DNA from: a bacterium
GTDB lineage: Bacteria; Myxococcota_A; Bradymonadia; UBA7976; UBA1532
Direction of reading: 5' to 3'
Length of the DNA stretch: 64,000 bases
Assembly (NCBI GenBank): GCA_030426085.1
Contig: JAUHYW010000003.1
Location: 119,343-183,342 of the forward strand
In this document: one piece after another, positions 1-60,276 of the stretch
Layout of the letters: each line of letters begins with the position of its first letter
Numbering within the stretch: the first letter of the stretch is position 1
Notes under the pieces: generated by a model
Database searches by the model: none
What the model was told of the DNA's origin: nothing
What the model saw: the letters and a program-made list of their open reading frames with translations, nothing else
Program-made: the position numbers and the translations under genes

Positions 1-632
1 GTGACCTCGCCCTCCGGCCCGTACAGCGCCCAGGTCGGGCCGCTGATCTGGTGGGCGTAGCGCAGGCAGGCGTGCGCGGTGAGGTCCTCGGGCGTCTGCG
101 GCACCCCGCGCCGCTCGAGGTAGGCCGGGCTGCCGACGATGCGGGCCCGGGTCCGGGCGAGGCGGCGCACGATGAGGCTGGAGTCGGCCAGCCGGCCGAT
201 GCGCACCACCATGTCGTAGCCCTCGGCGATGACGTCCACCCGGCGGTCGCTGTACGACGCCTCGACCCGCAGCTCGGGCCAGCGGGCCATGAACCCGGCC
301 ACCGCCGGGGCCACGTAGCGCAGGCCGAACGAGACCGGGGCGTTGATGCGCAGGGTGCCCCGGGGCTCGCTCTGCAGGTCGCGCACCGCCCGCTCGGCCT
401 CGTCCAGGTCGGCGAGGATGCGGGTCGCCCGGGTGTGGAGCTCGACCCCGGCGTCGGTGGGGCGCACGGTGCGGGTGGTGCGGTCGAGCAGCCGGGCGCC
501 GAGGCGGTCTTCGAGCGCCTGGATGCGGCGGCTGACGTGCGACTTGGAGACCCCCAGGCGGCGGGCGGCGGCGGTGAAGCCGCCCTCCTGCACGATCGCC
601 ACGAACATCTCCACGTCCGAGAAGCGGTCCAT
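1..632 (-). CDS. LysR-family transcriptional regulator, partial (N-terminal HTH plus substrate-binding domain; C-terminus lies beyond the window edge)
   Basis: Reverse-strand translation from ATG (complement of 630-632) reads MDRFSDVEMFVAIVQEGGFTAAARRLGVSKSHVSRRIQALEDRLGARLLDRTTRTV..., the typical LysR wHTH. GGGGAG RBS upstream. Divergent from the CN-hydrolase gene, the classic LysR arrangement. Not in the ORF track because it runs off the window. Confidence 0.8.
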   Translation of the reverse strand, partial: MDRFSDVEMFVAIVQEGGFTAAARRLGVSKSHVSRRIQALEDRLGARLLDRTTRTVRPTDAGVELHTRATRILADLDEAERAVRDLQSEPRGTLRINAPVSFGLRYVAPAVAGFMARWPELRVEASYSDRRVDVIAEGYDMVVRIGRLADSSLIVRRLARTRARIVGSPAYLERRGVPQTPEDLTAHACLRYAHQISGPTWALYGPEGEV

Positions 633-930
633 CGAGGCTCCCCTGCCGGTGCTGCCGACGCTGCCGGTGCGCGGGGGCAATTTAGCAGGATCCGGGGACA
701 ATGCCTCTGCTGCGCCGAACGAGTCACCGACATCGGCGGCGTTGCTCGCCCTCGACGTGCCACCAGCACGCCTGCGGGCTCGCGCCTTGCCGCTGCCGGC
801 GTCTCGCCCGGCTCGCGACGAGGCTTTTCCCCGGCTCCTGCTACCACGCCCGCCAGCGCCCGGCGGCCCGCTTGCGGGCGGGGCGGCGGCTCTCCACAAT
901 GGCGCCGACTCCATCAGCAGAGGTGCGCCG

Positions 931-1755
931 ATGTTCCTCGCCGCCTGCGTCCAGCTCCGCTGCACCACCGACGTGCAGCGCAACCTCGACACCGCCGAGC
1001 ACCAGATCCGGCGCGCGGCCCGGCTGGGCGCGGCCTTCGTCGCCACGCCGGAGAACACGGGCTTCCTCGGCCCCCAGTTCCACAAGGTCGAGCTCGCCGA
1101 GGGCATCGACGGGCCCATCGCCCGCCGCTTCGCCGCCCTGGCCGACGAGCTGGGCATCCACCTGCTGATCGGCAGCCTCGCCGAGCGGCGCATCCTGCCC
1201 GGCGGCGAGATCGACAAGGCCCGGTGCCACAACACCAGCCTGCTCTTCGGCCCCGACGGGGGGCGCATCGCGGCCTATCGCAAGATGCACCTCTTCGACG
1301 TCGACGTGCCGGGCGGGCTGACCATCCGCGAGTCGGACACCATCGCCCCCGGCGACGAGGTGGTCGTCGCCGAGACCGCCCTGGGCCGCATCGGCATGAG
1401 CATCTGCTACGATCTGCGCTTCCCCGAGCTGTACCGGGCGATGGTCGAGCAGGGGGCCGACATCCTGTGCGTGCCCTCGGCCTTCACCCTGACCACCGGC
1501 AAGGATCACTGGCACACCCTGCTGCGGGCCCGGGCCATCGAGACCGAGTGCCACGTGCTCGCGCCGGCTCAGTGGGGCACCCACGACGCCGGCGGTAAGC
1601 GGCGCAGCTACGGGCACAGCCTCATCGTCGACCCCTGGGGGGTGGTGCTCGCCGACCGGGGTCACGGGGAGGGGCTGTGCCTCGCCGAGATCGATCCCGA
1701 GCGCACCGCCGCGGTCCGCCGCTCGATCCCGGTGCGCGACCACCGGCGGCTGTGA
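931..1755 (+). CDS. carbon-nitrogen hydrolase family protein (Nit/omega-amidase-like)
   Basis: E-K-C catalytic signature (FVATPENTG ... RKMHLFD ... GMSICYDLRFPE). Start taken at the internal ATG of track ORF 343..1755, where the homologous region begins (MFLAACVQL...). Confidence 0.85.
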   Translation: MFLAACVQLRCTTDVQRNLDTAEHQIRRAARLGAAFVATPENTGFLGPQFHKVELAEGIDGPIARRFAALADELGIHLLIGSLAERRILPGGEIDKARCHNTSLLFGPDGGRIAAYRKMHLFDVDVPGGLTIRESDTIAPGDEVVVAETALGRIGMSICYDLRFPELYRAMVEQGADILCVPSAFTLTTGKDHWHTLLRARAIETECHVLAPAQWGTHDAGGKRRSYGHSLIVDPWGVVLADRGHGEGLCLAEIDPERTAAVRRSIPVRDHRRL

Positions 1756-1775
1756 GCCGTCCACTCGGGCGAGGA

Positions 1776-1816
1776 TGATGCGCCCGAGGCCGATCCCGGT
1801 TAGGATCGGCGCATCA
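1776..1816 (+). terminator. stem-loop after the CN-hydrolase gene (imperfect inverted repeat tgatgcgc...gcgcatca with inner ccgatcc/ggatcgg stem)
   Basis: Inverted repeat read directly from the sequence 20 nt after the stop codon. No U-tract, so possibly a processing or regulatory hairpin rather than an intrinsic terminator. Confidence 0.4.
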
Positions 1817-1908
1817 GACGACTCGACCGGCGGGATCGAACGGCGCGGGCCGCCGCCGGCTTCGAGCATCACCTGAGAGAGCGCCCGGCCGGCGCTCGGA
1901 GGACCGCG

Positions 1909-4572
1909 GTGACGTCCCCCCAAGACCCCGACGCCGAGGCCGATCCGCTCATCGGGCGGGCCCTCGGCGGGCGCTACATCATCGAGTCCCCCCTGGCCAG
2001 GGGCACGTTCGGCGCGGTCTATCGAGCCCGCATCGCCGACCGTCAGGTCGCCGTCAAGGTCCTGCACCCCCAGCTCACCGACGCCGAGAGCGCCGAGGCC
2101 AGCCGGGCCCGCTTCATGCGCGAAGCCCGGGTCATGGCCCAGATGGACACCCCCTACGCGGTGCGGCTGCTCGACTGCGGCGAAGAGCCCGACGGCATCG
2201 TGTTCATCGTGCAGGAGCTCATCCACGGGCGCTCGCTGCAGCAGTTCCTCGACGGCGAGGGCGCGGTGACCATCGCCCGGGCCATCGAGCTGTGCACCCA
2301 GATCCTGCAAGCGCTGCAGGACGCCCACGGCCGGGGCATCGTGCACCGGGACATCAACCCGTCGAACATCATGCTGGTGCTCGGCCCCGACGGCCGGGAG
2401 ACGGTGCGGGTGCTCGACTTCGGCATCGCCCGCATCCTCGAAGAAGACGCCCAGGGCAAGCGCATCACCCGCATGGGGCTGACCCTGGGCACGCCGACCT
2501 ACATGGCGCCGGAGCAGATCGACCAGAAGCAGATCGGGCCGGCGACCGACATCTACGCGGTCGGGGTGCTGCTGTTCCGGCTCATCCAGGGGCGGCTGCC
2601 GTTCACCGGCAAGAGCGCCATCGCCATCATGCAGCAGCACCGCGACGCCGCGCCGCCCGACGCCGACGCCGCGCCGGAGGGTTTGCAGGCGGTCATCCAC
2701 AAGGCGCTGGCCAAGTCCCCCGGCGATCGCTACGCCCACGCGGGCGCCATGCGGGCGGCCATCGCCCCGTTCGGGGGCGCCACCAGCGCGCCCATCGTGC
2801 GCCGGGCGGGGGGCGACGACACCCCGGTCTTCGCCACCGCCATCATCAGCAGCGGCGCCCCGGGCGAGGACGAGGCCCCGGCCCCGATCGTCGACCGCGA
2901 GCAGCGCACCAACTGGCTGCTCTTCGGCGCCATCGGGGTGCTGCTCGCCGGCTGCCTGGGCGCGCTGTACGCGATGTTCCTGCGCAGCGAGCCGGCGCCG
3001 GCGCCGACCCCCGGGGTCGAAGCCGGCGTCCAGGTCGAGGGCGACCCGAGCCCGGCTCCGCCCGCCGCGCCGGCCCGGCCCGCGGGCCCGATCGAGCTGA
3101 GCATCGGCTGGACCACCGAGCGGGGCATCCTGCGGGCCTACCCCGAGGGGGAGAGCGCCTCGGCCCTGGCCATCGACCTGACCATCGAGCGGCTGCTGCG
3201 GATCAAACCCGACGGCGAGCCGGCCCCCGGCGCCGTCGCCCGGTGGACCGCCGCCGCCGACGGCCGCTCGGTGGACCTCACGCTGGCCGAGGGGGTGCAG
3301 TTCAACCCCCACCCGTGCCTCGACGGCGCCGGGCGCCCGGCCACCGCGGCCGATCTGGCGTGGTCGGTGACCTACGCCGGCGAGTTCACCCCGGCCCTGG
3401 CCCACACCCCGATCGAGCGGGCCGAGGTGCGCCCCGACGGCGCCGTGCGGGTGATCTTCGAGCGGCCGACCCCCCACGGCGCCCGGCTGCTGAGCGGGGT
3501 CCGGCTGCTGCCGGCCGGCGTCGACGCGTGCGACGACCCCCGCCGCTTCGCCCGCCCGGTGGGCTCCGGCCCCTTCCGCTTCGACGCCGCGCCCCACGAC
3601 GGCCGCTATCGGCTGGTGCGGGCCGAGGCCGGGCGCTGGGCGAAGACCCCCGGGCCGCCGATGATCTACGTCGACCGGGTCGAGGGTGCCGGCGCCGCGC
3701 TGGAGGCGGTCGACGCCGGCCGGCTCGATCTGGCCCGGGTGCCGCTCGACGCCCGGGTCTTCGCCGACCCCCGGGCCGAGGCGCTTCGGCTCGCCGCGAA
3801 GGTCGACGTCACGCCGGCCGCCGAGGTGGACCCCGGCGCGGTGGTGAACTACGGGCTGCTCTTCCTCGGCGACGGCCCCCAGAGCGACCTCGCGGTGCGC
3901 CGGGCCATCGCCGCCGCGCTCGACCGGGCGGCGCTCACCCGCCGGATGCCGATCCGGGTCGAGCCCACCGACCGCATCCTCGAGCCGGGGCTGGCCGGCT
4001 TCGCCGCGCGGCCGGCCACCGCCCACGACCCCCGCGCCGCCCGAAAAGCGATCACCGAGGCCGGCGTCGACCAGCCGCTGCTGCTGGGCACGACCAAGGC
4101 CCACGCCGACGTGGCCGAGGCCGTCGCCGATCAGCTCCGGGCGGTGGGCTTGAAGGTGGTGCTGAGCATCATCGGCCGGGGCCAGCTCGACGACGCGCTG
4201 GCCGATCGCACGCTGGACGCCCTGTTCGTGGAGGTCTCCGGGGCCCGGTTCGCCGCCGATCCGCTGCCCTATCTGCGCGAGGTGGTGCGGCTGGCCCGCC
4301 GGGGCCCGGGTATGGACCCGGCCGACGTCGGGGCGCTGCTCGAGCAGGCCGCCGGCGCGCTCGACGCCAAAGCCCGGGCGGCGCTGTACGCCCGCATCGA
4401 GCAGGCGCTGTCGAGCCACCTGCCCTACGTGCCGGTGGGCCATGTCCCGCCGAGCGCGCCCCGGGCGGCGCTGCTGCTCGGCCCCGACGCGGCCGGGCTG
4501 GCCGGCGCCGACGGTCGGGCGCCGCTCGATGCCATCCGGGCGCTGGCGACCTACGTGCCCTCGGGCGGCTGA
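1909..4572 (+). CDS. Ser/Thr protein kinase fused via one TM helix to an extracytoplasmic solute-binding-protein family 5 (SBP_bac_5-like) domain
   Basis: Hanks kinase motifs ([38 protein letters not shown]). TM segment [24 protein letters not shown]-terminal ~500 aa resemble the peptide/nickel-type SBP5 fold. GTG start with GGAGG RBS 7 nt upstream. Confidence 0.8.
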
Positions 4573-4578
4573 CCCCGC

Positions 4579-5919
4579 TCAGCGCCCGGCCGGCCCCGGC
4601 GCCCCCTGAGCCAGCCACGTCGCGATCATGCGCACCTTCTCCGGCGGCAGCGGCGGCAGGCCCAGGGGCATGCCCGGCCGCTGGGGGTCGGGCCCGGCGG
4701 CGTCGGCCCGGCGCCCGCTGTACGGCGGCCGCACGTCGCGCCCGGCCTCGGCGTGGCGCCGCAGCAGCGCCGCGAGCAGCAGCGGCGGCTCACCTGGCCG
4801 GGGCGGCTCGACGATCGACACCCGCCTGCCGTCGCGCACCAGCCCCCGCTTCACCCCGGCGTAGGTCTCGAGGTCGAGCTGCAGCCCGGCGAAGCCCAGC
4901 CCGCCGGTGTTGCCCGCGCCCCCGTCGCCGTCATTGCTCTCCGGGTTCATGTGGCAGTGCACGCAGATCAGACCCAGGACCTCTTCGAAGACCTCGTCCC
5001 AGGTGACCTGACGGCTCAGCGGCTTCGCCTCGTCGATGGCCACCTGCGGCGCCGGGCCGTCCTTCACCGGCGCGTGCAGCAGGAAGTCGGCGATCTGCCC
5101 CGCCCGCTCGGGGCTCACCCCCAGCGGCGGCATCGTGGAGCGGGGGTCGACCGCGGTCGGCTGCACGATGAACCGCACCAGCGTCGCCCGCGGGATGCGG
5201 TCACGCACGAAGCGCAGGTCGGGCGCGAGCAGCGCCCGGTCGCCCATCGCCGCGAAGAACGCCGGCCCGTAGCCGGGCACCAGCGGCTCGGCCCCCATGA
5301 CGTGGCACGTCGGGCAGCCGGCGGTGAGGAACGCCTGCCGCCCGGCCTCGATCCGCTCCGGGCCGACCGCCGCCTCCCCCGCCCGGCCCCGCTTCACCGC
5401 TGCGTCGCCGTTGAGGGCGGTCAGGTAGGCCACGACCGCGTCCTTGTCGTCGGCCGACAGCCGCAGCGGGATCATCGACTCGTCGAGGTGCGGCCGCAGG
5501 TCGAACGGGGCGTCGAGGAAGCGCCGCACGAAGGCCGGATCGACCCGCCGGGTGAGCGTGCCCAGGTCGGGCAGCCGGCGGAAGTGCACGATGTTGTCGA
5601 GGTATCGATCCCAGTCGGGGAAGGTCTGCCGCTGGCGGGCGATGGCCGCCGGGTCGCCCTTGGTGCCCAGGATCCACTGGTGGCAGGTGACGCAGTTCAT
5701 CGCCCGCTCGATGGGGGCGATGCCCCGCCCCACGCCGGCGGTCGCCGCGGCGTCGGTGACCCCGTGGCACCGGGTGCACTCGGCGGCCTGCATGATCTGC
5801 CGGCCCTTCTCGGCGAGCGGGTCCAGATCGGGGCTGGCGAAGGCGGGGGTGGCGCAGAGCGCGAAGAGCAGGGCGGGGAGCGCGCCCGACCGCGGGCGGG
5901 TGGGCGCGGCGCGATTCAC
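4579..5919 (-). CDS. tetraheme c-type cytochrome, secreted
   Basis: Signal peptide plus four CxxCH motifs (CTRCH, CVTCH, CPTCH, CVHCH). Overlaps the upstream TPR gene by 4 nt. Confidence 0.85.
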   Translation of the reverse strand: MNRAAPTRPRSGALPALLFALCATPAFASPDLDPLAEKGRQIMQAAECTRCHGVTDAAATAGVGRGIAPIERAMNCVTCHQWILGTKGDPAAIARQRQTFPDWDRYLDNIVHFRRLPDLGTLTRRVDPAFVRRFLDAPFDLRPHLDESMIPLRLSADDKDAVVAYLTALNGDAAVKRGRAGEAAVGPERIEAGRQAFLTAGCPTCHVMGAEPLVPGYGPAFFAAMGDRALLAPDLRFVRDRIPRATLVRFIVQPTAVDPRSTMPPLGVSPERAGQIADFLLHAPVKDGPAPQVAIDEAKPLSRQVTWDEVFEEVLGLICVHCHMNPESNDGDGGAGNTGGLGFAGLQLDLETYAGVKRGLVRDGRRVSIVEPPRPGEPPLLLAALLRRHAEAGRDVRPPYSGRRADAAGPDPQRPGMPLGLPPLPPEKVRMIATWLAQGAPGPAGR

Positions 5920-6500
5920 AGGACCGCCACCCCGGCCACCGCGGCGAGGGCCTGCTCGGCGGCCACGACCCGGGCCGGATCGGCGCCGAGGCCCTTGGCG
6001 GTGGTCAGGTAGCGCTCGGCGGCCGCCCGCTGGCCCAGCTTCGCGTGGGCGATGGCCAGCTCGGGGTAGACCGCCGCCGAGAACCGGTCGAGGTCCCGGG
6101 CGGCCTCGAGGTGGGGGATGGCCTTCTGCACGTCGCGCTGCATCAGCATCTGCCCCAGGGCGAAGCGCACGCCGAAGTGCCCGTCGTCGAGGGCCGCGCC
6201 CCGGGTCAGGCGGGCGATGGCCCGCTCGGTGCGGCCGAGCTTGTCGTGCAGGGTGGCGGCCCGCAGAGCGGCGGTGGCCCGCAGGTTGGCCGGGCCGCCA
6301 GCGTTCATGGCCCGCTCGAAGTGGCGGATGGCGCCGCGCAGGTTGCCCTTCTCCTCGGCCTGCTCCCCCTTGCGGAAGTGGGTGTCGGCCACCATCTCGA
6401 TGTCGGGCAGACGGACCTTGCGCATCGCGCAGGCGTCGGCGGCGAGGGGGGTCAGGAGGCCGGCGAAGGCGACGGTGAGAGCGAGGGCGGCGAGCTTCAT
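5916..6500 (-). CDS. TPR-repeat protein with signal peptide
   Basis: Signal peptide MKLAALALTVAFAGLLTPLAADA. TPR-like helices (AIRHFERAMNA..., LGQMLMQRDVQKAIPHLEAA...). 4-nt overlap with the cytochrome gene implies an operon. Confidence 0.75.
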   Translation of the reverse strand: MKLAALALTVAFAGLLTPLAADACAMRKVRLPDIEMVADTHFRKGEQAEEKGNLRGAIRHFERAMNAGGPANLRATAALRAATLHDKLGRTERAIARLTRGAALDDGHFGVRFALGQMLMQRDVQKAIPHLEAARDLDRFSAAVYPELAIAHAKLGQRAAAERYLTTAKGLGADPARVVAAEQALAAVAGVAVL

Positions 6501-6642
6501 GGGGCGTCTCCGGTCGAGGGTTGCGTGGGCTCCGAACGGGTCACCCCGGCCAAAGTTCTGATCGCGGACGATTTTTCTGAATAAAGTTCACAACCGGCCG
6601 GAATCCCTGCCTTTTCCCCGCCCCGAGCGCGCCGCCCGCGGG

Positions 6643-8157
6643 TCAGATCGTCTGATCCTCGCCCCGATCGCCGAGGTAGCGCTCGACGGCCAGCCTGATC
6701 TGGCTGATGCCGTAGCCCTGGCGCACCATCACCCAGTCGACCTCCGAGTCGTTGCACGCGGGCAGCAGGATGTCGGTGACCTTGTGGTTGATGAAGCGGC
6801 CGAGCAGGAGCACGAACTCCACCGCGCCGCTGCGGATGCGCTCGGCGAGGCGCTGCACCGTCCGGATCTCGTAGCCGTTGACCCACTCCAGCTCGGCGAA
6901 GCCCAGCGCCTGCTCGATGGCCGCCCGCCGCTTCTCGCGGGGCTCGCCGCCGACCATCGCCGCCTGCTTGCCTCGGGTGCGGTCGAAGCAGGCCCAGTCC
7001 TCGGGGATCGGGCCGGCCGCCTCGTCGCTGCCGCCCGGATCGTCGTCGTCCTCCGGGACCCGCATCCGGATGGCCCGGCGGACCCGCTTGAGGTTCTTGT
7101 CGCCCCCGATCAACTCCAGGTGCGGCTCGAGCAGCCGGACCAGGCGTGGATCCTCGGGCGCCACCCCCGAGCGCAGCGCGCGGTTGGCCGCCTTCTTGAC
7201 CGCCCGGGCGTCGGGCGCGGACTGGTCGAGCACGCCCCGCAGGTCGTTGAGCGAGACCTCGGGGTTGAGGCTCGCCTTCTGCTGCTCGATGGCCAGGCTG
7301 CCCAGCTCCCGCTGGAGGGTGTTCCACCAGTACTGCGAGTCGCTGAACCAGGAGTCGCTCTCCGGCTTGTGCTGGCGGCTGAGGCCGGTGACCCACCCCG
7401 GCTGGTACTCGCTGCTGAACTGCGTCAGCCGGGCGAAGCCCCGCCGGAGCTGCAGCTCGAGCACGACCCGCACCGCCGAGGGGGTGTCGTCCTGCAGCCG
7501 GCGCATGCGGCAGGCGACCAGCCCCAGCAGCGCCCGCTGGATGGCCCGGGGGAACTGGCCCCAGCGGCCGATGCGGGTCAGCTCGGTGTCGAGCACCGCC
7601 GCCTCGGCCAGCAGCTCGTCGTGGCTCAGGTTGTCCCGCGGGGGCCCGAGCCGGAGGATGATCTCGTGCAGCGTCTCGATGCTGAAGCCGGGGTCGAAGG
7701 TCTCGTGGGACCAGTTGGCGCTGCCGAGCACGAGGCTGTCGATGATCGACAGGTCGACCAGCCCGTCGTCGCTGTCCTCGATGGGGGCGCCGCCGACGAT
7801 CGAGTCGATCGTCCGGCCGATGTCGTCCTCGTCCTCGTCCTCGTGCAGGTCCTCGCCTTCGACGGGCGGCGCCGACGCCGGCGCGGCGGTCTCGTGGGAC
7901 CCGTCGCCCGGGCCCGGCTCGAGCCGGATCGTGCCGCCGACGAAGCGCCAGTCGAGGGCCAGCATCGCCCATCGGATCAGCTTCTCGTCCCGGGCCGCTC
8001 GCAGCTCGTCCAGCTTGCGCTCGTCGTCCATCGAGGGGGACTCCGCCAGCCGGCGGTGCAGCCGGGCCAGCCGCTGCTGCACGGCGAGCAGCTCGGCCCC
8101 GAGCGCGGCGAACGACTCGGGCAGATCGGCCCGGTCGGCGGTGGTCTTGCCGCTCAT
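6643..8157 (-). CDS. hypothetical protein (504 aa) with an acidic low-complexity stretch
   Basis: Real start is an internal ATG of track ORF 6643..8892 (MSGKTTADRADLPE...). Starts 5 nt after the enoyl-CoA hydratase stop. High GC3. No domain I can name. Confidence 0.6.
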   Translation of the reverse strand: MSGKTTADRADLPESFAALGAELLAVQQRLARLHRRLAESPSMDDERKLDELRAARDEKLIRWAMLALDWRFVGGTIRLEPGPGDGSHETAAPASAPPVEGEDLHEDEDEDDIGRTIDSIVGGAPIEDSDDGLVDLSIIDSLVLGSANWSHETFDPGFSIETLHEIILRLGPPRDNLSHDELLAEAAVLDTELTRIGRWGQFPRAIQRALLGLVACRMRRLQDDTPSAVRVVLELQLRRGFARLTQFSSEYQPGWVTGLSRQHKPESDSWFSDSQYWWNTLQRELGSLAIEQQKASLNPEVSLNDLRGVLDQSAPDARAVKKAANRALRSGVAPEDPRLVRLLEPHLELIGGDKNLKRVRRAIRMRVPEDDDDPGGSDEAAGPIPEDWACFDRTRGKQAAMVGGEPREKRRAAIEQALGFAELEWVNGYEIRTVQRLAERIRSGAVEFVLLLGRFINHKVTDILLPACNDSEVDWVMVRQGYGISQIRLAVERYLGDRGEDQTI

Positions 8158-11945: not shown

Positions 11946-14033
11946 CTACTTCACGTCCCGCAGGAAGCCGACCCGGCTCTTGATGACCTCGAGCTGGGGG
12001 TGGGGCGGAGTCAGGTAGCGGACCTGATCGAGCCACTGCTCGTAGTACTTCAGCGCGGTGTCGTAGTCCCGGACCTCCATCGCCTTGCGGCCCCGGTTGA
12101 GCAGCCCCCGCAGCTTCTTGTCGCTGGGGCGGGGCTCGACGTCCCGGGGCTCGTCGGCCCGCTTGCGCCGGGTGCGCTTGCGGCGCCGCTTGCGCTCCGG
12201 CTCCGGATCGGTGACGGCCGGCGCGGCGTCGACCACGGCCTGATCGGGCTGGATCACGTGGGCCACCACCGGCTCGGGCACCGGCGGCGCCGGCTGGGGG
12301 GTGCCGACGGTCAGCCGGCTGGCCTCGCCGTCGGGCTCGACCGTCGCCCCGTCGTCGCCGCCGACGAGCATCCACACCACCCACCCGGTCGCGATCGCGA
12401 TCACCGGCAGCAGCAGCAGCAGCCACGGGCGGCGGCGGCGCGCGGGCGGTTCGACGACCGGGGCCGCCGGCTCCTCGAGGCGGAAGCCGGACCCGATGAG
12501 CATCATCGGCGGCATGTCGGCCTTGGTCGGCTCCTCCTCGTCGAGGTCGACCCGCGAGATGCGGGTCTCGGCGAGCTGGGCGGCGAGGTGGGCCATGCCG
12601 GTGCGCCGCCCGAGCGGCTCCACCTGGGTCGGGGCCATGTCCTCCGAGTCGTCGACGAAGCCCTCGATCGCCGTCGGCATCTCGGCCTGGGAGTCGTCGA
12701 GCAGCCCGTCGAAGCTCTGCAACAGCTCGACGTTGGCCTCGGTGTCCCCCGCCTCGTCGTCCACCTCGAACGGCAGCTCGCCGGTCGGCGGCCGGCTGCG
12801 CTGCGCCTGCCGGGCCCGGGCCATCGCCGCCGCGGAGCGCTCGGGGGGCATCATCTCGGTGTCCGCCGGCAGCCCCACCTGCCCGTCGCCCGCCTGGGGG
12901 ATCAGGGCCGCAAAACCCCCGGTGCGCTGCCGCCCCCGGTGGCCGGGCACGACCATCACCGGCCACGACCCCTGGATGGCCGGCCCCATCGCGATCTCGT
13001 CGAGCCGGTCGATGAACGCCTGGGAGTCCGCCGGCCGCTTGTCGGGGTCGCGGGCCATCGTGTCGTAGATGAGCTGCTCGAGCCCCGGCAGCAGCTTGAC
13101 CGCCGGGTCGACCCCCGACAGGGGCAGCGGATCCTTGGTGCAGGCCCAGATGATGATCTGGGTGTTCGAGCCATCGGGGTAGGGCGAGACCCCGGCGATC
13201 ATCTCGTAGAACAGCACCCCGAGCGCGTAGAGGTCGGCCCGGGCGTCGACGACCTGCTTCTCCTTGCCCGACATCGCGCCCACGCCCGACAGCACCCACG
13301 AGGGCACTTGCTCCGGGGCGAGGTAGCCCGGGGTGCCCCGCAGCGCCATCGGGTGGGTCGAGGCCTTGCCCCCGTGCCCCGAGACGTCCTTGACCAGCCC
13401 CAGGTCGACGAGGGTCAGCCGCCCGTCGCCCCGGGGGTCGAGGATGACGTTGGCCGGCTTGAGGTCGCGGTGCACCAGCCGCCGCTCGTGGAAGGCGCCG
13501 AGCGCGTCGGCGATCTGGCGGGCGATGTTGATCGCCTCGGCCACCTCGAACCGCCCCCGCTCGGCGAGCATCTGCAAGAGCGAGGGCCCCGGCACGTAGT
13601 CCATGACCAGGAACGGCATCTTCTCGTAGATGCCGAAGTCGCTGACCCGCACCACCGACTCGTGGCGGATGACCGAGGCCACCCGCGCCTCGCGCATGAA
13701 GTCGCGGGAGTACTCCTCTTTCTGGTCGCGGCCCACGTCGAGGCCGACCGTCTCCAGGTCGAGGAACTTGACCGCGAAGAGCTGCTCGAGGTGCAGGTGC
13801 TGGGCGAGGTACACCGTGCCCAGGCCGCCCTGGCCCAGCCCGCCGATCAGATGATACCGGTCACCGACTACTTTGCCGAGCAGCGGATAGCGCGACTTGA
13901 CCTGGTGCGCCTGCACCTCGGCCAGCGGCGCGTCGTCTCGATCGCACTGCTTGCGCGGCTTCTTGTAGAGGGTGCGGCATTCGGGACAGATCCACACGGG
14001 GGGCAGCTTATTACTGATCGAGTGCCGTTGCAT
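11946..14033 (-). CDS. Ser/Thr protein kinase with N-terminal zinc-ribbon and C-terminal TM plus TPR-like tail
   Basis: Start ATG (complement of 14031-14033) with GAGAGGAAAG RBS. N-terminal WICPECRTLYKKPRKQC zinc ribbon. Kinase motifs (GQGGLGTVYLAQH, AVKFL, HRDLKPANVIL, DLGLVK, GTPGYLAPE). Long disordered linker, TM helix, C-terminal TPR-like helices. The track ORF extends further upstream as an artefact. Confidence 0.85.
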   Translation of the reverse strand: MQRHSISNKLPPVWICPECRTLYKKPRKQCDRDDAPLAEVQAHQVKSRYPLLGKVVGDRYHLIGGLGQGGLGTVYLAQHLHLEQLFAVKFLDLETVGLDVGRDQKEEYSRDFMREARVASVIRHESVVRVSDFGIYEKMPFLVMDYVPGPSLLQMLAERGRFEVAEAINIARQIADALGAFHERRLVHRDLKPANVILDPRGDGRLTLVDLGLVKDVSGHGGKASTHPMALRGTPGYLAPEQVPSWVLSGVGAMSGKEKQVVDARADLYALGVLFYEMIAGVSPYPDGSNTQIIIWACTKDPLPLSGVDPAVKLLPGLEQLIYDTMARDPDKRPADSQAFIDRLDEIAMGPAIQGSWPVMVVPGHRGRQRTGGFAALIPQAGDGQVGLPADTEMMPPERSAAAMARARQAQRSRPPTGELPFEVDDEAGDTEANVELLQSFDGLLDDSQAEMPTAIEGFVDDSEDMAPTQVEPLGRRTGMAHLAAQLAETRISRVDLDEEEPTKADMPPMMLIGSGFRLEEPAAPVVEPPARRRRPWLLLLLPVIAIATGWVVWMLVGGDDGATVEPDGEASRLTVGTPQPAPPVPEPVVAHVIQPDQAVVDAAPAVTDPEPERKRRRKRTRRKRADEPRDVEPRPSDKKLRGLLNRGRKAMEVRDYDTALKYYEQWLDQVRYLTPPHPQLEVIKSRVGFLRDVK

Positions 14034-15356
14034 CTTTCCTCTCGACCCGATCCTGGGGCATCGTCGGGTGCCGACCCCCGCACCGGGAGGCCACCGCTGC
14101 CCATCGACCGCTCCCGCACGATCCGCGGGCGCCTGCTGTGCCCCGCCGCCGACCGGCGCTCGGTCGCCGTGCTCGCCGACGCCCTGCTCGAGATCGACCC
14201 CCGGGGGTACATCGCCGCGGTGGGCCCCACCCCGCCCGGATGCCCGCTGCCCGAGAGCCGCCCCGGCGCGGTCTGGATGCCCGGCTTCGTCGACGCCCAC
14301 GTGCACTTCCCCCAGACCCGGGTCGTGGGCAGCGCCACCGGGCCGCTGCTCGAGTGGCTCGCGCGCACCGTCTTCCCCGAGGAGGCCCGGTTCCGCGAGC
14401 GGGCCTATGCCGAGGCGGTCGCCGACGAGTTCTGCGCCGCCCTCGCCCGGGCCGGCACCACCACCGCCTCGATCTTCAGCGCGAGCGACCCCGGAGCGAC
14501 CGACGCGCTCTTCGCCGCGCTCGACCGGTGGGGCCTGCGGGCCCGGGCCGGGCTGACGCTGATGGACCGGGGCGCGCCGCCGACGGTCTGCGTGCCCGCC
14601 GGGCGAGCGCTCGACGCCGCCGAGGCCCTCATCGCGCGGTGGCACGGCCGCGACGACCGCCTCTGGTTCTGCGTCACCCCCCGCTTCGCGCTGAGCTGCA
14701 CCCCCGCCCTGCTCGCCGGAGCCGCCGCGCTCGCCGAGCGCCACGACCTGTGGATCCAGACCCACCTCTCGGAGAACCGGGCCGAGATCGAGGCCACCCG
14801 GGCCGCGTTCCCGGGGCACGCCGACTACCTCGCGGTCTACGCCGACCACGGCCTCGCCGGCCGGCGCAGCCTCTTCGCCCACTGCATCTGGCTGGACGAC
14901 GGCGGCTGGGACCGCCTCGCCGACCGGGGCTGCGCGGTGGCCCACTGCCCCGACAGCAACTTCTTCCTCGGCAGCGGGCAGATGCCGCTCGCCCGAGCCC
15001 TCGAGCGCGACGTCCGGGTCGGGCTGGGCACGGACGTCGGCGCCGGGCGCAGCTTCTCGATCCCCCGCATCGCCGCGGCGGCCTACGACACCGCCCGCCT
15101 GCTCGACGCGCCGCAGACCGCCGAGGCGCTGCTGTGGCACGCGACCGCCGGCGGCGCGGCCGCGCTGGGGCTCGCCGACCGGATCGGCCGGCTCGAAGCG
15201 GGGATGGAGGCCGACCTGGTGGCGATCGACGTGCCGCCCTACGCGCTCGACAGCCCGGCCCGCCTGTTCGACGCGCTGGTCTTCCGGCATGACGCCGGGC
15301 CGGTGGGTGAGGTGTACGTGAGGGGGCGGCCGGTGGGGCGGGTGAAGAGCCGCTGA
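14022..15356 (+). CDS. guaD: guanine deaminase (amidohydrolase superfamily)
   Basis: PGFVDAHVHFPQ, HLSEN, AHCPDSNFFLGSG, GTDVGAG motifs. The start is uncertain. No ATG/GTG/TTG lies between the conserved RTIRGRLL region and the divergent kinase start. In-frame candidates are GTG 14022 and TTG 14028 (both overlapping the kinase start codon region), CTG 14097, or GTG 14169 (which would truncate the conserved N-terminus). Confidence 0.8.
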   Translation: MPLHLSSRPDPGASSGADPRTGRPPLPIDRSRTIRGRLLCPAADRRSVAVLADALLEIDPRGYIAAVGPTPPGCPLPESRPGAVWMPGFVDAHVHFPQTRVVGSATGPLLEWLARTVFPEEARFRERAYAEAVADEFCAALARAGTTTASIFSASDPGATDALFAALDRWGLRARAGLTLMDRGAPPTVCVPAGRALDAAEALIARWHGRDDRLWFCVTPRFALSCTPALLAGAAALAERHDLWIQTHLSENRAEIEATRAAFPGHADYLAVYADHGLAGRRSLFAHCIWLDDGGWDRLADRGCAVAHCPDSNFFLGSGQMPLARALERDVRVGLGTDVGAGRSFSIPRIAAAAYDTARLLDAPQTAEALLWHATAGGAAALGLADRIGRLEAGMEADLVAIDVPPYALDSPARLFDALVFRHDAGPVGEVYVRGRPVGRVKSR

Positions 15357-15888: not shown

Positions 15889-16902
15889 ATGGCCTACGCG
15901 CTGCGCTTCATTGCCGGAAGGTTCAAAGGCGGCGAGTTCCCGCTCAAGTCGAATCGCGAGATCGTGATCGGCCGGGGTTCGGAGTTCGACATGGTGCTCG
16001 ACGAGGACATGGTCTCGCGGCGCCACGCCAAGATCGCGACCTTTCACGGCCAGATCGTGCTGCAGGACCTCAAGAGCACCAACGGCACGTTCGTCAACGG
16101 CGAGCGCACCTCGGTGGCCCGGCTCAAGCCGGGGGACAAGGTGCTGGTGGGCACCTCGGTCATGGAGCTCATCCGCACCGACGAGGCCGCCGCGTCGGGC
16201 GAGAGCCGGCGCACGTCGTCCAAGCCGGTGAGCATGGGCACCCCGCCCAAGTCGGGGCCGGCGGGGGTGCCGCCGCCGCCGTCGTCGATCATGGAGACCC
16301 AGCACGCGATGCGGGTCACCGTCGACCGCTCGCGGGGCATGTCGGGGCGCATCTCGGAGAACGACGTCACCGTGCCCGACCTCGTCGAGCTGTTCAACGC
16401 GAACCGCCGCACCGGGGTGCTGGTGCTCACCGACCCCGATGAGGTCGAGGGGCGCATCTTCTTCCGGGACGGCGCGGTGTACTACGCGACCCTCGCCCGG
16501 CCGAACCAGAAGCAGGAGGCGCCCATCCCGCCGCTGAAGTGCTTCTTCCGGCTGCTGACCTGGACCGCGGGCAACTTCCGGATGGACACCCTCAACCCCG
16601 CGCCGTCGTTCGACACCGAGATCGAAGGCGAGACCCGCAACCTGATGCTCGAGGGCATGCGGCAGTTCGACGAGCTGAAGCTCTACGTCGAGCACCTGCC
16701 CGGCCGGCGGGCCCGGCTCAAGGTCACCCACCCCCTGCGGTCGAAGCTCTCCGCGCTCAGCCCCGAGGCGCTCGACACGCTGCAGCTCGTGCTCAACCAC
16801 GGCGAGGTGGGCAAGGTGCTCGACTACAGCGAGGCCAACGACCTCGAGACGTGCCAGGATCTGCTCTACCTCGTGCAGAACGACTACCTGACGACCGAGT
16901 GA
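15889..16902 (+). CDS. FHA domain protein with C-terminal DUF4388-like domain
   Basis: N-terminal FHA signature (GRGSEFDMVLDEDMVSRRHAKI...LKSTNGTFVNGER). The C-terminal region (DLVELFNANRRTGVLVLTD...GRIFFRDGAVYYA) matches the myxobacterial DUF4388 type of domain. Confidence 0.8.
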   Translation: MAYALRFIAGRFKGGEFPLKSNREIVIGRGSEFDMVLDEDMVSRRHAKIATFHGQIVLQDLKSTNGTFVNGERTSVARLKPGDKVLVGTSVMELIRTDEAAASGESRRTSSKPVSMGTPPKSGPAGVPPPPSSIMETQHAMRVTVDRSRGMSGRISENDVTVPDLVELFNANRRTGVLVLTDPDEVEGRIFFRDGAVYYATLARPNQKQEAPIPPLKCFFRLLTWTAGNFRMDTLNPAPSFDTEIEGETRNLMLEGMRQFDELKLYVEHLPGRRARLKVTHPLRSKLSALSPEALDTLQLVLNHGEVGKVLDYSEANDLETCQDLLYLVQNDYLTTE

Positions 16903-57454: not shown

Positions 57455-58528
57455 TCACGCGGCGGGCGGCGGCGCGTGCACGAACCGCACGAGCGCATCA
57501 CCCACCGCCCGGGTGCCCAGTTCACCACCCAGGTCGCGGGTCACCCGGTGCTCGCGCAGGGCCTGGACCACCGCCGCCTCGACCGCCATCGCCGCCTCGC
57601 CGTGCCCCAGGAACTCCAGCATCTGGGCCCCGGTGAGCACCATCGCCAGCGGGTTGGCGATGTCCTTGCCGGCCAGCGGCGGCGCGCTGCCGTGCACCGG
57701 CTCGAACAGGCTGACCCGCCCGGGGTGGATGTTGCCGCTCGGGGCCAGCCCCAGCCCGCCGACGAGCTGGGCCGACAGGTCGCTGAGCACGTCGCCGAGC
57801 AGGTTGCCGGTGACGATGACGTCGAAGTCCTCCGGGGCCCGCACCAGCTCCATCGCCAGCACGTCGGCGTAGAGGTGGCGGGCGGCGATGTCGGGGTACT
57901 CTTCGGCCACCTCGACGAAGACGTCCTGCCACAGCCCGTGGGCGTCGCGCAGCACGTTGGCCTTGTCGGCCATGCACACCCGCTTGCGCTCGTTCTCCAC
58001 CGCCCACTCGAACGCCGCCCGCACGATGCGCTCGACGCCCTTGCGGGTCTGCACCATCTCGTTGATCGCGATCTCGTCCGGCGTGCCCTGCTTGAAGCGG
58101 CCGCCGATGCCCACATACAGGCCCTCGGTGTTCTCCCGCAGGATCACGAAGTCGAGGTCGTCGGGGGTCTTGTTCTTGAGCGGGGTCAGCGCCGGGTGCA
58201 GCAGCCGGGCCGGGCGCAGGTTGACGTAGAGGTCGAGGCGGAAGCGCAGCCCGAGCAGGATGTCCTTGGCGTGGGCCATGTCGGGCACCCGGGGGTCGCC
58301 GAGCGCGCCGAGGTAGATCGCGTCGTAGTTGTCGCGGAAGTCCTCGAAGGCCGACTGGGGCAGGGTCACCCCCTCGGCGAGGTACTTCTCGGCGCCGAAG
58401 TCGAACCAGGTGAACTCCAGCGGCAGGTCGTGCAGCTCGGCGACGGCCTCGAGCACCTGCACCCCGACGGCGGCCACCTCGGGGCCGATGCCGTCTCCGG
58501 GGATGACCGCGATCTTCTGGACGCTCAT
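57455..58528 (-). CDS. isocitrate/3-isopropylmalate dehydrogenase family protein (tartrate/IPM dehydrogenase-like)
   Basis: IAVIPGDGIGPEV N-terminus. LRENTEGLY. GNLLGDVLSDL. Overlaps the upstream kinase gene stop by 4 nt (ATGA). Confidence 0.85.
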   Translation of the reverse strand: MSVQKIAVIPGDGIGPEVAAVGVQVLEAVAELHDLPLEFTWFDFGAEKYLAEGVTLPQSAFEDFRDNYDAIYLGALGDPRVPDMAHAKDILLGLRFRLDLYVNLRPARLLHPALTPLKNKTPDDLDFVILRENTEGLYVGIGGRFKQGTPDEIAINEMVQTRKGVERIVRAAFEWAVENERKRVCMADKANVLRDAHGLWQDVFVEVAEEYPDIAARHLYADVLAMELVRAPEDFDVIVTGNLLGDVLSDLSAQLVGGLGLAPSGNIHPGRVSLFEPVHGSAPPLAGKDIANPLAMVLTGAQMLEFLGHGEAAMAVEAAVVQALREHRVTRDLGGELGTRAVGDALVRFVHAPPPAA

Positions 58529-60276
58529 CGTGCCTCCTCTACGGGGGGTCCCGTCTCGTCCGGCCCGCGCTTGAGCGCGCCGGCGTACTTCAACATCAGC
58601 CGCAGCGCGGCCCGCTCGAAGGCCCGAGCGGACGCCCGCAGGCCGTCGGCGGCCACCGCCGCCTGCTGCTCGTAGCGCACCCCGTCCTCCTGCTCTTCGA
58701 GCTCGAGCTCGGCGAGGTCGCGCTGCAAGTCGGCCCGCTGACCCCGAGCCTCGGCCAGCCGCTCGGCCGCCTCCCGCTCGTCCTCCCGGGCGTCGGCCAG
58801 GGATTCGAGCAGGCCCTCGCGCTCTTCGAGCACCGCGTCGACCCGCCGCCGGTGGTGCTCGAGCATCGGCAGCGAGGTGTCGGCCACCGTGCGCCCGGCG
58901 ACCATGCGCAGCGCCGCGAGCACCCGGCCGTACTTGTCGTCGGCCCGGGCCACCGCCGAGACCGCCCGGTCGAGCGCGCCCGCCGCCTCGCTGGCCCGGC
59001 CCTCGGCCAGCATCAGCCCCTGCCGCAGCCGGCGCAGCTTGCGCTGGAGCGCCTCCCGCCCCGCGATGCGGATGCGGGCCGCGTCGTCGGCCTCCTCCCG
59101 CTTGCGGTCGGCCTCGCCCTGGGCCAGATCGAGCGCCTTGCGGGCCCGCTTGAGCAGCCCCCCGGCCCGCAGGACCTCGGGCGGCGGCGAGGGCTGCCAG
59201 ATGTTGGCCACCAGGTGCTCGAGGTTCTCGGCGAACAGCCGCCAGTCGCCGGTGTGGCCCGGGCCGGGCACCTCGGGCAGCGGCGCCTGACGGGCGGTGG
59301 CCCCCTGGGCGAAGCTGCCCGCCAGCTCGCGGATGGAGCGGTCGAGCGCGGCGATGACCGCCTCGGCGCTGCCCGGCCGGTCGTCGGGGCGCTTCTCGAG
59401 GCAGTTGTGGATCAGGGCCACCAGGGTGCGGGGCAGGCCGGGCACCAGCCCGTCGATGCGGGGCGGGACCTCTTGCACATGGGCCGCCACCACCCGGGTC
59501 GGGTCGTCGTGGGGGAACGGCGGGCGCCCCGCGATCAGATGGTAGAGCACCCCGCCGACGGCGTAGAGGTCGGTGCGGGCGTCGGGCGGCTCGCCGACCG
59601 CCTGCTCGGGGGCCAGATACAGCGGGGTGCCCATGATGAACAGCCCGGTCGGCTCATGGGCCCGCTCGGGGTCGTCGGCCGGCAGCGCCAGGATGCCCAG
59701 GTCGATGAGCTTGACGTGGTCGACGAAGCGCCCGTCGGCCGTCAGGAAGATGTTCTCCGGCTTGACGTCGCGGTGCACCGCGCCCCGCCGGTGCAGCACC
59801 GCGAGCGCCTCGCACACCTGGCGCATGATGTGGATCGCGCGCACCGGCGGCAGCCGCAGGCGCTCCTCGAGCTCGTCGAAGAGGTCGCGGCCCCGGAGCA
59901 GCTCCATGGCGAGCCACGCCCGCCCGTCGGAGAAGTGGCCCCCGTCGAGGATGCTGACCAGGTGCGGGTGGCGCAGGCCGCGACCCACGTTCCACTCGGT
60001 CTCCATGCGGGCGACCACCGCCGGGGCCTCGGGGATGTCGTCCCGGCTGACCTTCACCGCCAGCCGCCGGTTCGAGGCGTTGTGCCGCACCTCGAACACC
60101 TCGGCGGTGCTGCCGTCGGCCAGCCGCCGGAGCAGCGTGTAGCCGAAGCGCAACAGCTCGATGGGGATGTCGGCCCGGGGCTGGCCCGGCTGGGGCAGGT
60201 CGCTCAACGTTCCTCGGGGCGGTCGGTTCGCGCCGCGCGCGCGGGCGATCAACGGGTGATCGTTAGCACATCGCAC
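58525..60276 (-). CDS. Ser/Thr protein kinase with long C-terminal coiled-coil
   Basis: Kinase motifs (AVKV, HRDVKPENIFL, DLGIL, GTPLYLAPE) then about 250 aa of Arg/Glu-rich coiled coil. Track start is GTG at 60276. An ATG three codons downstream (60269-60271) is an alternative; the exact start is unresolved. Confidence 0.8.
   Translation of the reverse strand: MRCANDHPLIARARGANRPPRGTLSDLPQPGQPRADIPIELLRFGYTLLRRLADGSTAEVFEVRHNASNRRLAVKVSRDDIPEAPAVVARMETEWNVGRGLRHPHLVSILDGGHFSDGRAWLAMELLRGRDLFDELEERLRLPPVRAIHIMRQVCEALAVLHRRGAVHRDVKPENIFLTADGRFVDHVKLIDLGILALPADDPERAHEPTGLFIMGTPLYLAPEQAVGEPPDARTDLYAVGGVLYHLIAGRPPFPHDDPTRVVAAHVQEVPPRIDGLVPGLPRTLVALIHNCLEKRPDDRPGSAEAVIAALDRSIRELAGSFAQGATARQAPLPEVPGPGHTGDWRLFAENLEHLVANIWQPSPPPEVLRAGGLLKRARKALDLAQGEADRKREEADDAARIRIAGREALQRKLRRLRQGLMLAEGRASEAAGALDRAVSAVARADDKYGRVLAALRMVAGRTVADTSLPMLEHHRRRVDAVLEEREGLLESLADAREDEREAAERLAEARGQRADLQRDLAELELEEQEDGVRYEQQAAVAADGLRASARAFERAALRLMLKYAGALKRGPDETGPPVEEAR

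Follow-up and report, generated by a model that had tools for sequence, protein, structure and literature searches.

For most bacterial Ser/Thr kinases no input signal is known, and myxobacteria encode very many of these enzymes; three lie in the 64,000-nucleotide stretch of Bradymonadia DNA considered here (contig JAUHYW010000003.1, positions 119,343 to 183,342; 'the window'). One of the three, encoded at 1909-4572 on the forward strand, raises a question of purpose: its outer end is a domain of the kind found in the binding proteins of ATP-binding cassette (ABC) importers, and one would like to know what such a domain does for a kinase. The gene specifies a Hanks-type Ser/Thr kinase, a single transmembrane (TM) helix and a family 5 substrate-binding-protein (SBP5) domain. 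The answer developed below begins with the gene and its parts, continues with the relatives of the outer domain, and then weighs the ways in which the whole might work.

A kinase with a family 5 binding-protein ectodomain

The DNA around the kinase gene is ~71-79% GC, so spurious long open reading frames (ORFs) are common there. The frame at 1909-4572, returned by a mechanical ORF finder as a stop-free translation of 887 residues, has a GC content of 97% at codon position 3 and 53% at position 2, as real genes do in a genome of this composition. NCBI and Logan assemblies both contain the identical 887-aa protein (P0008; Logan contig and locus L004; P and L numbers are our handles for proteins and loci). 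The kinase-TM-SBP5 architecture is common to six orthologous clusters (861-892 aa), and the ORF is intact in every ortholog (7 clusters). Mis-assembly and artefactual fusion were considered and ruled out, as independent assemblies contain the same architecture; the gene is a confirmed observation. A scan of 600-4900 for promoters and terminators found no sigma-70-like sites, as expected at such high GC, and one terminator-like match, within chance. The gene and its parts are as follows.

1898..1903, + strand: ribosome-binding site GGAGGA, 5 nt ahead of the GTG start (read from the sequence)
1909..4572, + strand: receptor Ser/Thr kinase gene with SBP5 ectodomain, 887 aa (GTG start, stop included)
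1984..2742, + strand: cytoplasmic Hanks-type kinase domain, residues 26-278 (Pfam Pkinase, PF00069, E 7.3e-44)
2344..2367, + strand: catalytic loop HRDINPSN, residues 146-153, with Asn150 in the place of the usual Lys (alignment of fused kinases)
2764..2910, + strand: juxtamembrane segment, residues 286-334, with a conserved motif (ortholog alignment)
2911..2982, + strand: single TM helix, residues ~335-358 (hydropathy peak at 337-355, mean Kyte-Doolittle value 2.16)
2983..3090, + strand: Pro/Ala-rich periplasmic linker, residues 359-394 (~36 aa), poorly conserved (alignment)
3091..4569, + strand: periplasmic cluster-C SBP5 domain, residues 395-887 (Pfam, AlphaFold2, Foldseek)
3316..3318, + strand: Cys470 in the clade insertion F-x-x-H-P-C, here F-N-P-H-P-C (alignment)
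3529..3531, + strand: Cys541 in the motif D-x-C-D-D-P-R-R-F (alignment)

The preliminary description of this DNA, made from the letters alone, had proposed a cytoplasmic Hanks kinase, a single TM helix and a periplasmic SBP5 domain, in that order; Pfam, hydropathy and predicted fold match it exactly. Its placement of the DNA in Myxococcota agrees with the prolyl-tRNA synthetase (ProRS) of the window, which is 76-81% identical to those of metagenome-assembled genomes (MAGs) labelled Myxococcota, Myxococcales, Bradymonadia or Nannocystaceae. From ProRS and the labels of these relatives, the host is taken to be a Gram-negative myxobacterium, and the ectodomain is therefore taken to be periplasmic.

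The family of the ectodomain is evident in both sequence and predicted structure. SBP_bac_5 (PF00496) matches residues 437-784 at E 1.7e-28, with 100.3 bits against a curated cutoff of 32.4, and the match spans profile positions 1-354 of 368. An AlphaFold2 model built from only four ortholog ectodomains was poor (predicted local distance difference test, pLDDT, 66); it was superseded by a run on a 36-sequence alignment (pLDDT 94.1; predicted TM-score, pTM, 0.91), in which the bilobed cluster-C fold is present. Foldseek comparison with the PDB returned family 5 SBPs exclusively (best E 1e-28, TM-score 0.62-0.76); sequence profiles of the ectodomain match the same family 5 proteins at E 1e-35 to 1e-45, and hhalign gives E. 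coli DppA a probability of 99.8% and NikA one of 99.7%. The claim of an SBP5 domain, which had been staked on a significant hidden Markov model (HMM) hit and a predicted SBP fold, is thus borne out on both counts. The setting is another matter: instead of the signal peptide or lipoprotein leader and the ABC genes that go with SBP5 proteins, this domain comes after a kinase and a TM anchor.

At the other end of the protein, the Pkinase match scores 150.6 bits against a curated cutoff of 31.7. Lys50 of the VAVK motif, Asp148 of HRD, Asn153 and Asp170 of DFG are present and invariant in the orthologs, so that the catalytic triad and the Asn of HRDxxxxN are all in place; the activation segment keeps GTPxYMAPE, and the bacterial 'RF' motif of 10.1101/2025.01.12.632604 is present in the C-helix. 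The same work separates kinases from pseudokinases by three residues; by that triad the domain is canonical, and phosphotransfer is predicted. The PASTA kinase model NF033483 reaches 247.5 bits, below its cutoff of 450, and matches only the kinase domain (residues 15-288); Pfam found no PASTA repeats in the window protein. One position departs from the Ser/Thr-kinase pattern HRDxKxxN, in that its Lys is missing. Asn takes its place in all seven orthologs (HRDINPSN in six, HRDINPTN in one), and Ser does so in the nearest relatives (P0046, P0067, P0071 and P0082); Lys is found in 35 of the 47 fused kinases scanned.

A signalling-dedicated clade of family 5 domains

One way to understand an importer-type domain on a kinase would be as a transporter component joined to it by chance. 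A profile of the ortholog ectodomains was compared with 1.84 billion representative proteins; it matched 9223 of them at E<1e-3, and 56 hits reached E<1e-30. In 46 of these 56 best hits the SBP5 domain follows one TM helix: 25 have the order kinase, TM, SBP5, and 21 the order cyclase, TM, SBP5, the partner in the latter being a class III nucleotide cyclase (Pfam Guanylate_cyc). The others are six N-terminally truncated fragments, three stand-alone proteins with short leaders and one protein with an unassigned N-terminus. Ordinary SBPs of ~510-550 aa with signal peptides predominate only below about E 1e-21. A neighbor-joining tree of 126 domains, without support values, places the fused domains apart from the stand-alone SBPs; within it, kinase-linked and cyclase-linked domains interleave.

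The fused domains have a signature of their own. Cys470 lies in an insertion with the clade consensus F-H-x-H-P-C; it is conserved in 97% of fused-clade domains, and 94% of stand-alone SBPs have a gap there. Cys541 is conserved in 95% of the fused clade and is not conserved among stand-alone SBPs. The two probably form a periplasmic disulfide. The clade residues common to both output types are H468-P469-C470, C541, R476, D482 (100%), S486, R689, D770 and E831; the last six are 85-100% conserved across domains that are otherwise only ~30% identical. Examples of the cyclase, single TM, SBP5 order with the same signature include P0050-P0052, P0058-P0062, P0069 and P0070 (MCC6746747.1), among others. 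The window protein has every signature residue and groups with the kinase- and cyclase-fused domains, in a clade that is defined here and is not a curated family.

Genomic context agrees. No ABC permease or ATPase genes were found in six distinct neighbourhoods (the window, L001, L005/L006, Actinomadura L008, Myxococcales L092, and L093). Because fusions dominate the best hits, because the domains carry their own signature, and because the inspected contexts are free of ABC genes, the clade to which the ectodomain belongs is a signalling-dedicated form of SBP5, not a transporter component fused by chance. The earlier proposal of a one-component sensor gains from this, through a subclade found almost only in fusion with signalling outputs and with no ABC neighbours; the sensing of a ligand, which was also part of the proposal, we infer.

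A third architecture may be represented by P0087 (779 aa) and P0115 (673 aa), in which a lipoprotein-like leader and an unassigned N-terminal region of ~260 aa precede an SBP5 domain whose score places it with the signalling clade.

The nature of the ligand could not be taken from the closest structures. The structural neighbours (5u4o, AapF 7kz8/7kz9, GsiB/YliB 1uqw, NikZ, NikA, DppA, AgaA and MoaA) are all 13-21% identical to the ectodomain, and their ligands comprise peptides, Ni-histidine chelates, opines, glutathione, sialic acid, EDTA and HEHEAA (a signal, bound by AapF); with such diverse binders equally similar, assignment by nearest structure was rejected.

The residues by which DppA and NikA hold their ligands were instead mapped individually, by L-INS-i alignment with the 126 domains and, as an independent check, by hhalign with the profile of the clade, the numbering having been verified on the E. 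coli sequences. We take D408 of DppA to be the Asp that binds the peptide alpha-amino group, R355 to be the Arg that binds the C-terminal carboxylate, and R137 of NikA to be a nickel-chelate anchor. DppA D408 falls on A779 (P, G or A in orthologs), with L-INS-i and hhalign in agreement, and R355 falls on a gap or on L726. R137 of NikA and H416, called essential in the title of PDB entry 3qim, lie in loops missing from 64-65 of the 65 fused-clade domains, and these positions are gaps in hhalign too. The TIGR02294 nikA model gives 16.7 bits against a cutoff of 393. From alignments at ~17-19% identity, the absence of both the DppA-type peptide anchors and the NikA-type nickel anchors is held with moderate confidence. 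The ligand is probably neither a peptide bound in the manner of DppA nor a nickel chelate bound in the manner of NikA. The 'peptide/nickel' resemblance of the preliminary description is thus unsupported as a statement of specificity, and is best kept as a family name only.

Possible modes of action

We favour, as the probable reading, a single-pass receptor Ser/Thr kinase (N-in, C-out) of an uncultured myxobacterium that is regulated by ligand and switched by ectodomain-driven dimerisation. It builds on the observed architecture, fold, intact catalytic core, membership in the signalling clade and lack of transporter partners in the inspected contexts; ligand binding, domain closure, dimerisation and trans-autophosphorylation are what it infers. 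That is, a periplasmic ligand would bind in the inter-lobe cleft, and the SBP5 domain would close on it; closure would alter the self-association of the ectodomain and bring two cytoplasmic domains together; dimerisation, with trans-autophosphorylation of the activation loop, would activate the kinase; finally, the activated kinase would phosphorylate cytoplasmic targets.

Control by dimerisation is proposed for two reasons. The Pro-rich linker of ~36 residues is unconserved (24-43% identity between the window protein and close orthologs) and is unlikely to pass a rigid piston or rotation signal; and both fused outputs, Hanks kinases and class III cyclases, need dimers for activity. Dimerisation activates Hanks receptor kinases, PknB and PknD among them; class III cyclases, obligate dimers, build their active sites across the dimer. 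The TM helix is 87-93% identical among close orthologs. On its cytoplasmic side, a juxtamembrane motif of 19 residues is kept across the ortholog group; it could, speculatively, serve as an autophosphorylation site or as a docking site for an FHA domain.

The two halves of the protein have evolved at very different rates. Between the window protein and its ortholog at L005, the kinase domain is 95% identical (nonsynonymous divergence, dN, 0.03) and the SBP5 ectodomain 58% (dN 0.36); the adjoining carbon-nitrogen hydrolase and LysR regulator, described below, are 92% and 78% identical. Among the closest orthologs kinase identity is 95-97%. A 30-residue sliding window against L005 and L006 places the break exactly at the membrane: identity holds at 87-100% as far as the TM helix, then falls to 24-43% across the linker and lies at 33-87% over the ectodomain; within the kinase most such windows are 93-100% identical, and only the two ends fall to 77-90%.

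Several of these observations weigh against the favoured reading. The ectodomain is the fastest-evolving part of the whole locus, which could mean relaxed constraint. Its ratio of nonsynonymous to synonymous divergence (dN/dS) is about 0.47-0.73 in the group of the window, L005 and L006, and 0.18, indicating purifying selection, in L001/L003, the closest ortholog pair; at 97% GC in third positions dS is compressed, and the ratio cannot separate diversifying selection from relaxed constraint. The ligand anchors of DppA and NikA have no counterparts in these alignments, so a classical pocket cannot be assumed. The separation of the fused clade rests on a neighbor-joining tree without support values. 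Finally, the Lys-to-Asn change in the catalytic loop, shared by all orthologs, may lower or alter kinase activity. Decay of the ectodomain is argued against by the ORF, intact everywhere, and by the clade signature, which is kept.

If the ectodomain were under other constraints than ligand binding, it might have been retained for localisation, for binding to the envelope or to a protein, or for constitutive dimerisation, the kinase then being regulated in some other way; the SBP5-fold lipoprotein LpqW, which has a non-transport role, may be compared. We consider this unlikely. Residues R476, D482, S486, R689, D770 and E831 are conserved across both output types, confidence in the predicted bilobed fold is very high, and the closest ortholog pair is under purifying selection, all of which speak against a domain released from its ligand. 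An opposite departure would leave the domain doing its original work: as a membrane-tethered SBP it might still feed an ABC importer encoded elsewhere, with the kinase reporting transporter occupancy (a 'transceptor'). The fold and the Pfam family are indeed those of ABC-importer SBPs, and SBPs with dual roles in transport and signalling are known, for example in the pairs DppA-Tap and CBP-ChiS (PMC8050422). Even so, the absence of ABC genes from the inspected neighbourhoods, the clade separate from the stand-alone SBPs, and the cyclase fusions, which point to a pure sensor module, leave this reading very little probability.

Doubt may also fall on the kinase. A catalytically impaired domain, a pseudokinase or scaffold, would signal by partner binding and not by phosphotransfer, and the Asn at the catalytic-loop Lys position in seven of seven orthologs, with no compensating Arg in the loop and with Ser in the nearest relatives, would suit such a protein. 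The rest of the catalytic apparatus would not: the VAIK-type Lys, the HRD Asp, the HRDxxxxN Asn and the DFG Asp are intact, including the three residues of 10.1101/2025.01.12.632604, and the GTPxYMAPE activation loop is conserved. Kinase identity of 95-97% indicates strong constraint, though a scaffold could be constrained too. We regard an impaired kinase as improbable.

A broader proposal can be built on the ligand-regulated receptor kinase, and it is offered tentatively. The ectodomain might represent a previously undescribed SBP5 clade for signalling, recognisable by its signature disulfide and by the missing anchor loops for peptide and nickel. Its named members, which are myxobacterial or 'deltaproteobacterial' MAGs, would employ it as a dimerisation-driven sensor for kinases and class III cyclases alike, as bacterial counterparts of the Venus-flytrap receptor kinases and cyclases of animals. 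Its fast evolution, beside a kinase that hardly changes, would then reflect diversifying selection for variable ligands, possibly biotic ones derived from prey, kin or host.

Genomic setting and known systems

The two genes upstream of the kinase gene are the following.

1..632, - strand: divergent LysR-family regulator, cut by the window start (NCBIfam YafC-like, below cutoff)
931..1755, + strand: Nit1/Nit2-like carbon-nitrogen hydrolase, 274 aa, upstream of the kinase with a 153-nt gap (Pfam CN_hydrolase, E 3.6e-61)

The Nit-like amidase matches NitFhit (3.8e-57) and Nit2 (4.8e-52) in the PDB. It stands directly upstream of the kinase, on the same strand, in all five ortholog loci with enough flank (L001, L002, L004, L005 and L006; gaps of 76-163 nt), and a complete divergent LysR gene lies upstream of the amidase in the four with enough flank for it (L001, L004, L005 and L006). 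The genes downstream of the kinase differ among ortholog loci, and the more distant fused kinases P0046, P0048 and P0037 lack the LysR and amidase neighbours. A functional link between kinase and amidase is possible; the two genes are linked only within the narrow ortholog group.

Downstream in the window, the gene of a 446-aa protein (4579-5919, - strand; cytochrome c motif in the N-terminal part) converges on the kinase gene, with 6 nt between the stops, and is followed by a TPR protein (5916-6500, - strand), a pairing seen only in the window's own genome. A 504-aa gene at 6643-8157 (- strand), as called in Logan contig L004, has no Pfam family on record; the ORF overlapping it in a different frame, at 6500-7972, had no family match in the scan. 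The second Hanks kinase of the window (11946-15290, - strand; 1114 aa) has its kinase domain at residues 479-757, after an N-terminal region of ~478 aa without a Pfam match. A protein with FHA and DUF4388 domains, at 15889-16902 on the + strand and 11 kb from the receptor kinase, is a candidate phosphothreonine reader. The third kinase-like ORF (58525-60276, - strand) has the motifs HRDVKPEN...DLG, starting near 59775.

Named fused proteins are few, and their taxonomic spread is poorly quantified: besides Actinomadura, the sources are one Myxococcales MAG and one labelled 'Deltaproteobacteria'. To the former belongs P0046 (MCA9538276.1), the closest non-orthologous relative, and to the latter one cyclase fusion. 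No relatives turned up among GTDB species representatives in a contig scan with motifs of the ortholog ectodomains; a scan of metagenome contigs found only three loci, at 24% identity, and a homologue search with the broad clade alignment added neither fused members nor organism names.

The general design, a kinase joined to a binding protein, is known, and the present architecture is already in public databases under automatic names. Family 3 and ANF/Leu-Ile-Val-type folds are smaller SBP classes, and it is with these that the described fusions are concerned. Fusions of kinases with periplasmic binding proteins were catalogued in 2005, a Streptomyces coelicolor kinase with a Glu/Gln-type SBP and a Nostoc kinase with an ANF receptor (PMC1262709); co-occurrence of Pkinase and SBP_bac_3 in Actinomycetes is listed in PMC13293324; and SBP Pfam domains are recognised as receptor sensor domains in general (PMC9602780). 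The fusions of PMC1262709 share with the window protein a Hanks kinase and an extracytoplasmic binding-protein fold. The folds in that catalogue and in PMC13293324 are of family 3 or of the ANF/Leu-Ile-Val type, whereas the window protein has a family 5, cluster C domain of ~490 aa that belongs to the signalling clade. Full-text literature searches, which lay mostly outside subscription journals, found no description of a Pkinase-SBP_bac_5 fusion or of the sharing of its sensor with cyclases; this is weak evidence of absence. What the analysis adds to the preliminary description is the sensor clade shared with class III cyclases, the lost ligand anchors, the break in conservation at the membrane and the Lys-to-Asn change in the loop.

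A named parallel is WP_103565541.1 (POM22863.1) of Actinomadura rubteroloni, a 918-aa protein that likewise has Pkinase, a TM helix and SBP_bac_5, with no ABC genes adjacent. It differs in an ectodomain only 23% identical, which the ortholog ectodomain HMM does not match, in a canonical HRDFKPGN loop and in being paired with a second kinase gene. It is annotated 'Serine/threonine-protein kinase AfsK' or 'ABC transporter substrate-binding protein'. In some databases proteins of the clade carry the latter label, or 'peptide/nickel transport', probably wrongly. The solved SBP5 proteins (those named above as structural neighbours) are, unlike the window protein, soluble or lipid-anchored partners of ABC importers, and stand-alone SBPs lack the HPC insertion and Cys pair of the fused clade.

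Among characterised systems, GlnH-GlnX-PknG is the only SBP-stimulated Ser/Thr kinase (PMC8050422). There too an SBP controls a Ser/Thr kinase, which is the design read for the window protein; it does so through three proteins, with a family 3 SBP and a signal that passes by way of the membrane protein GlnX, whereas here a single polypeptide holds all the parts. PASTA kinases (PknB, PrkC and Stk1) have the same layout of Hanks kinase, juxtamembrane segment, single TM helix and extracytoplasmic ligand-binding region; they carry PASTA repeats in place of the SBP5 sensor, and the window protein belongs to a Gram-negative myxobacterial host. The class III cyclase fusions (P0051, P0058 and P0070, for example) share clade, signature and N-in, one-TM, C-out topology with the window protein and differ in their output, a Guanylate_cyc cyclase instead of a kinase. 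A sensor built on one of the best-understood ligand-binding folds offers a tractable entry point to the inputs of bacterial Ser/Thr kinases, as the ectodomain can be expressed alone for ligand screening.

A last comparison is with animal receptors. Venus kinase receptors and the natriuretic-peptide receptor guanylyl cyclases also combine a bilobed ectodomain and a single TM helix with an intracellular kinase and/or cyclase that is active as a dimer. Their folds are type I (ANF/LIVBP-like), their kinase parts are Tyr-kinase or kinase-homology domains, and their ectodomain is N-terminal, the opposite polarity; the likeness is one of analogy only, with no homology of the whole architecture. One SBP5 clade serving both kinases and cyclases suggests a portable sensor module with a common, dimerisation-based way of crossing the membrane, in parallel with the receptors of animals.

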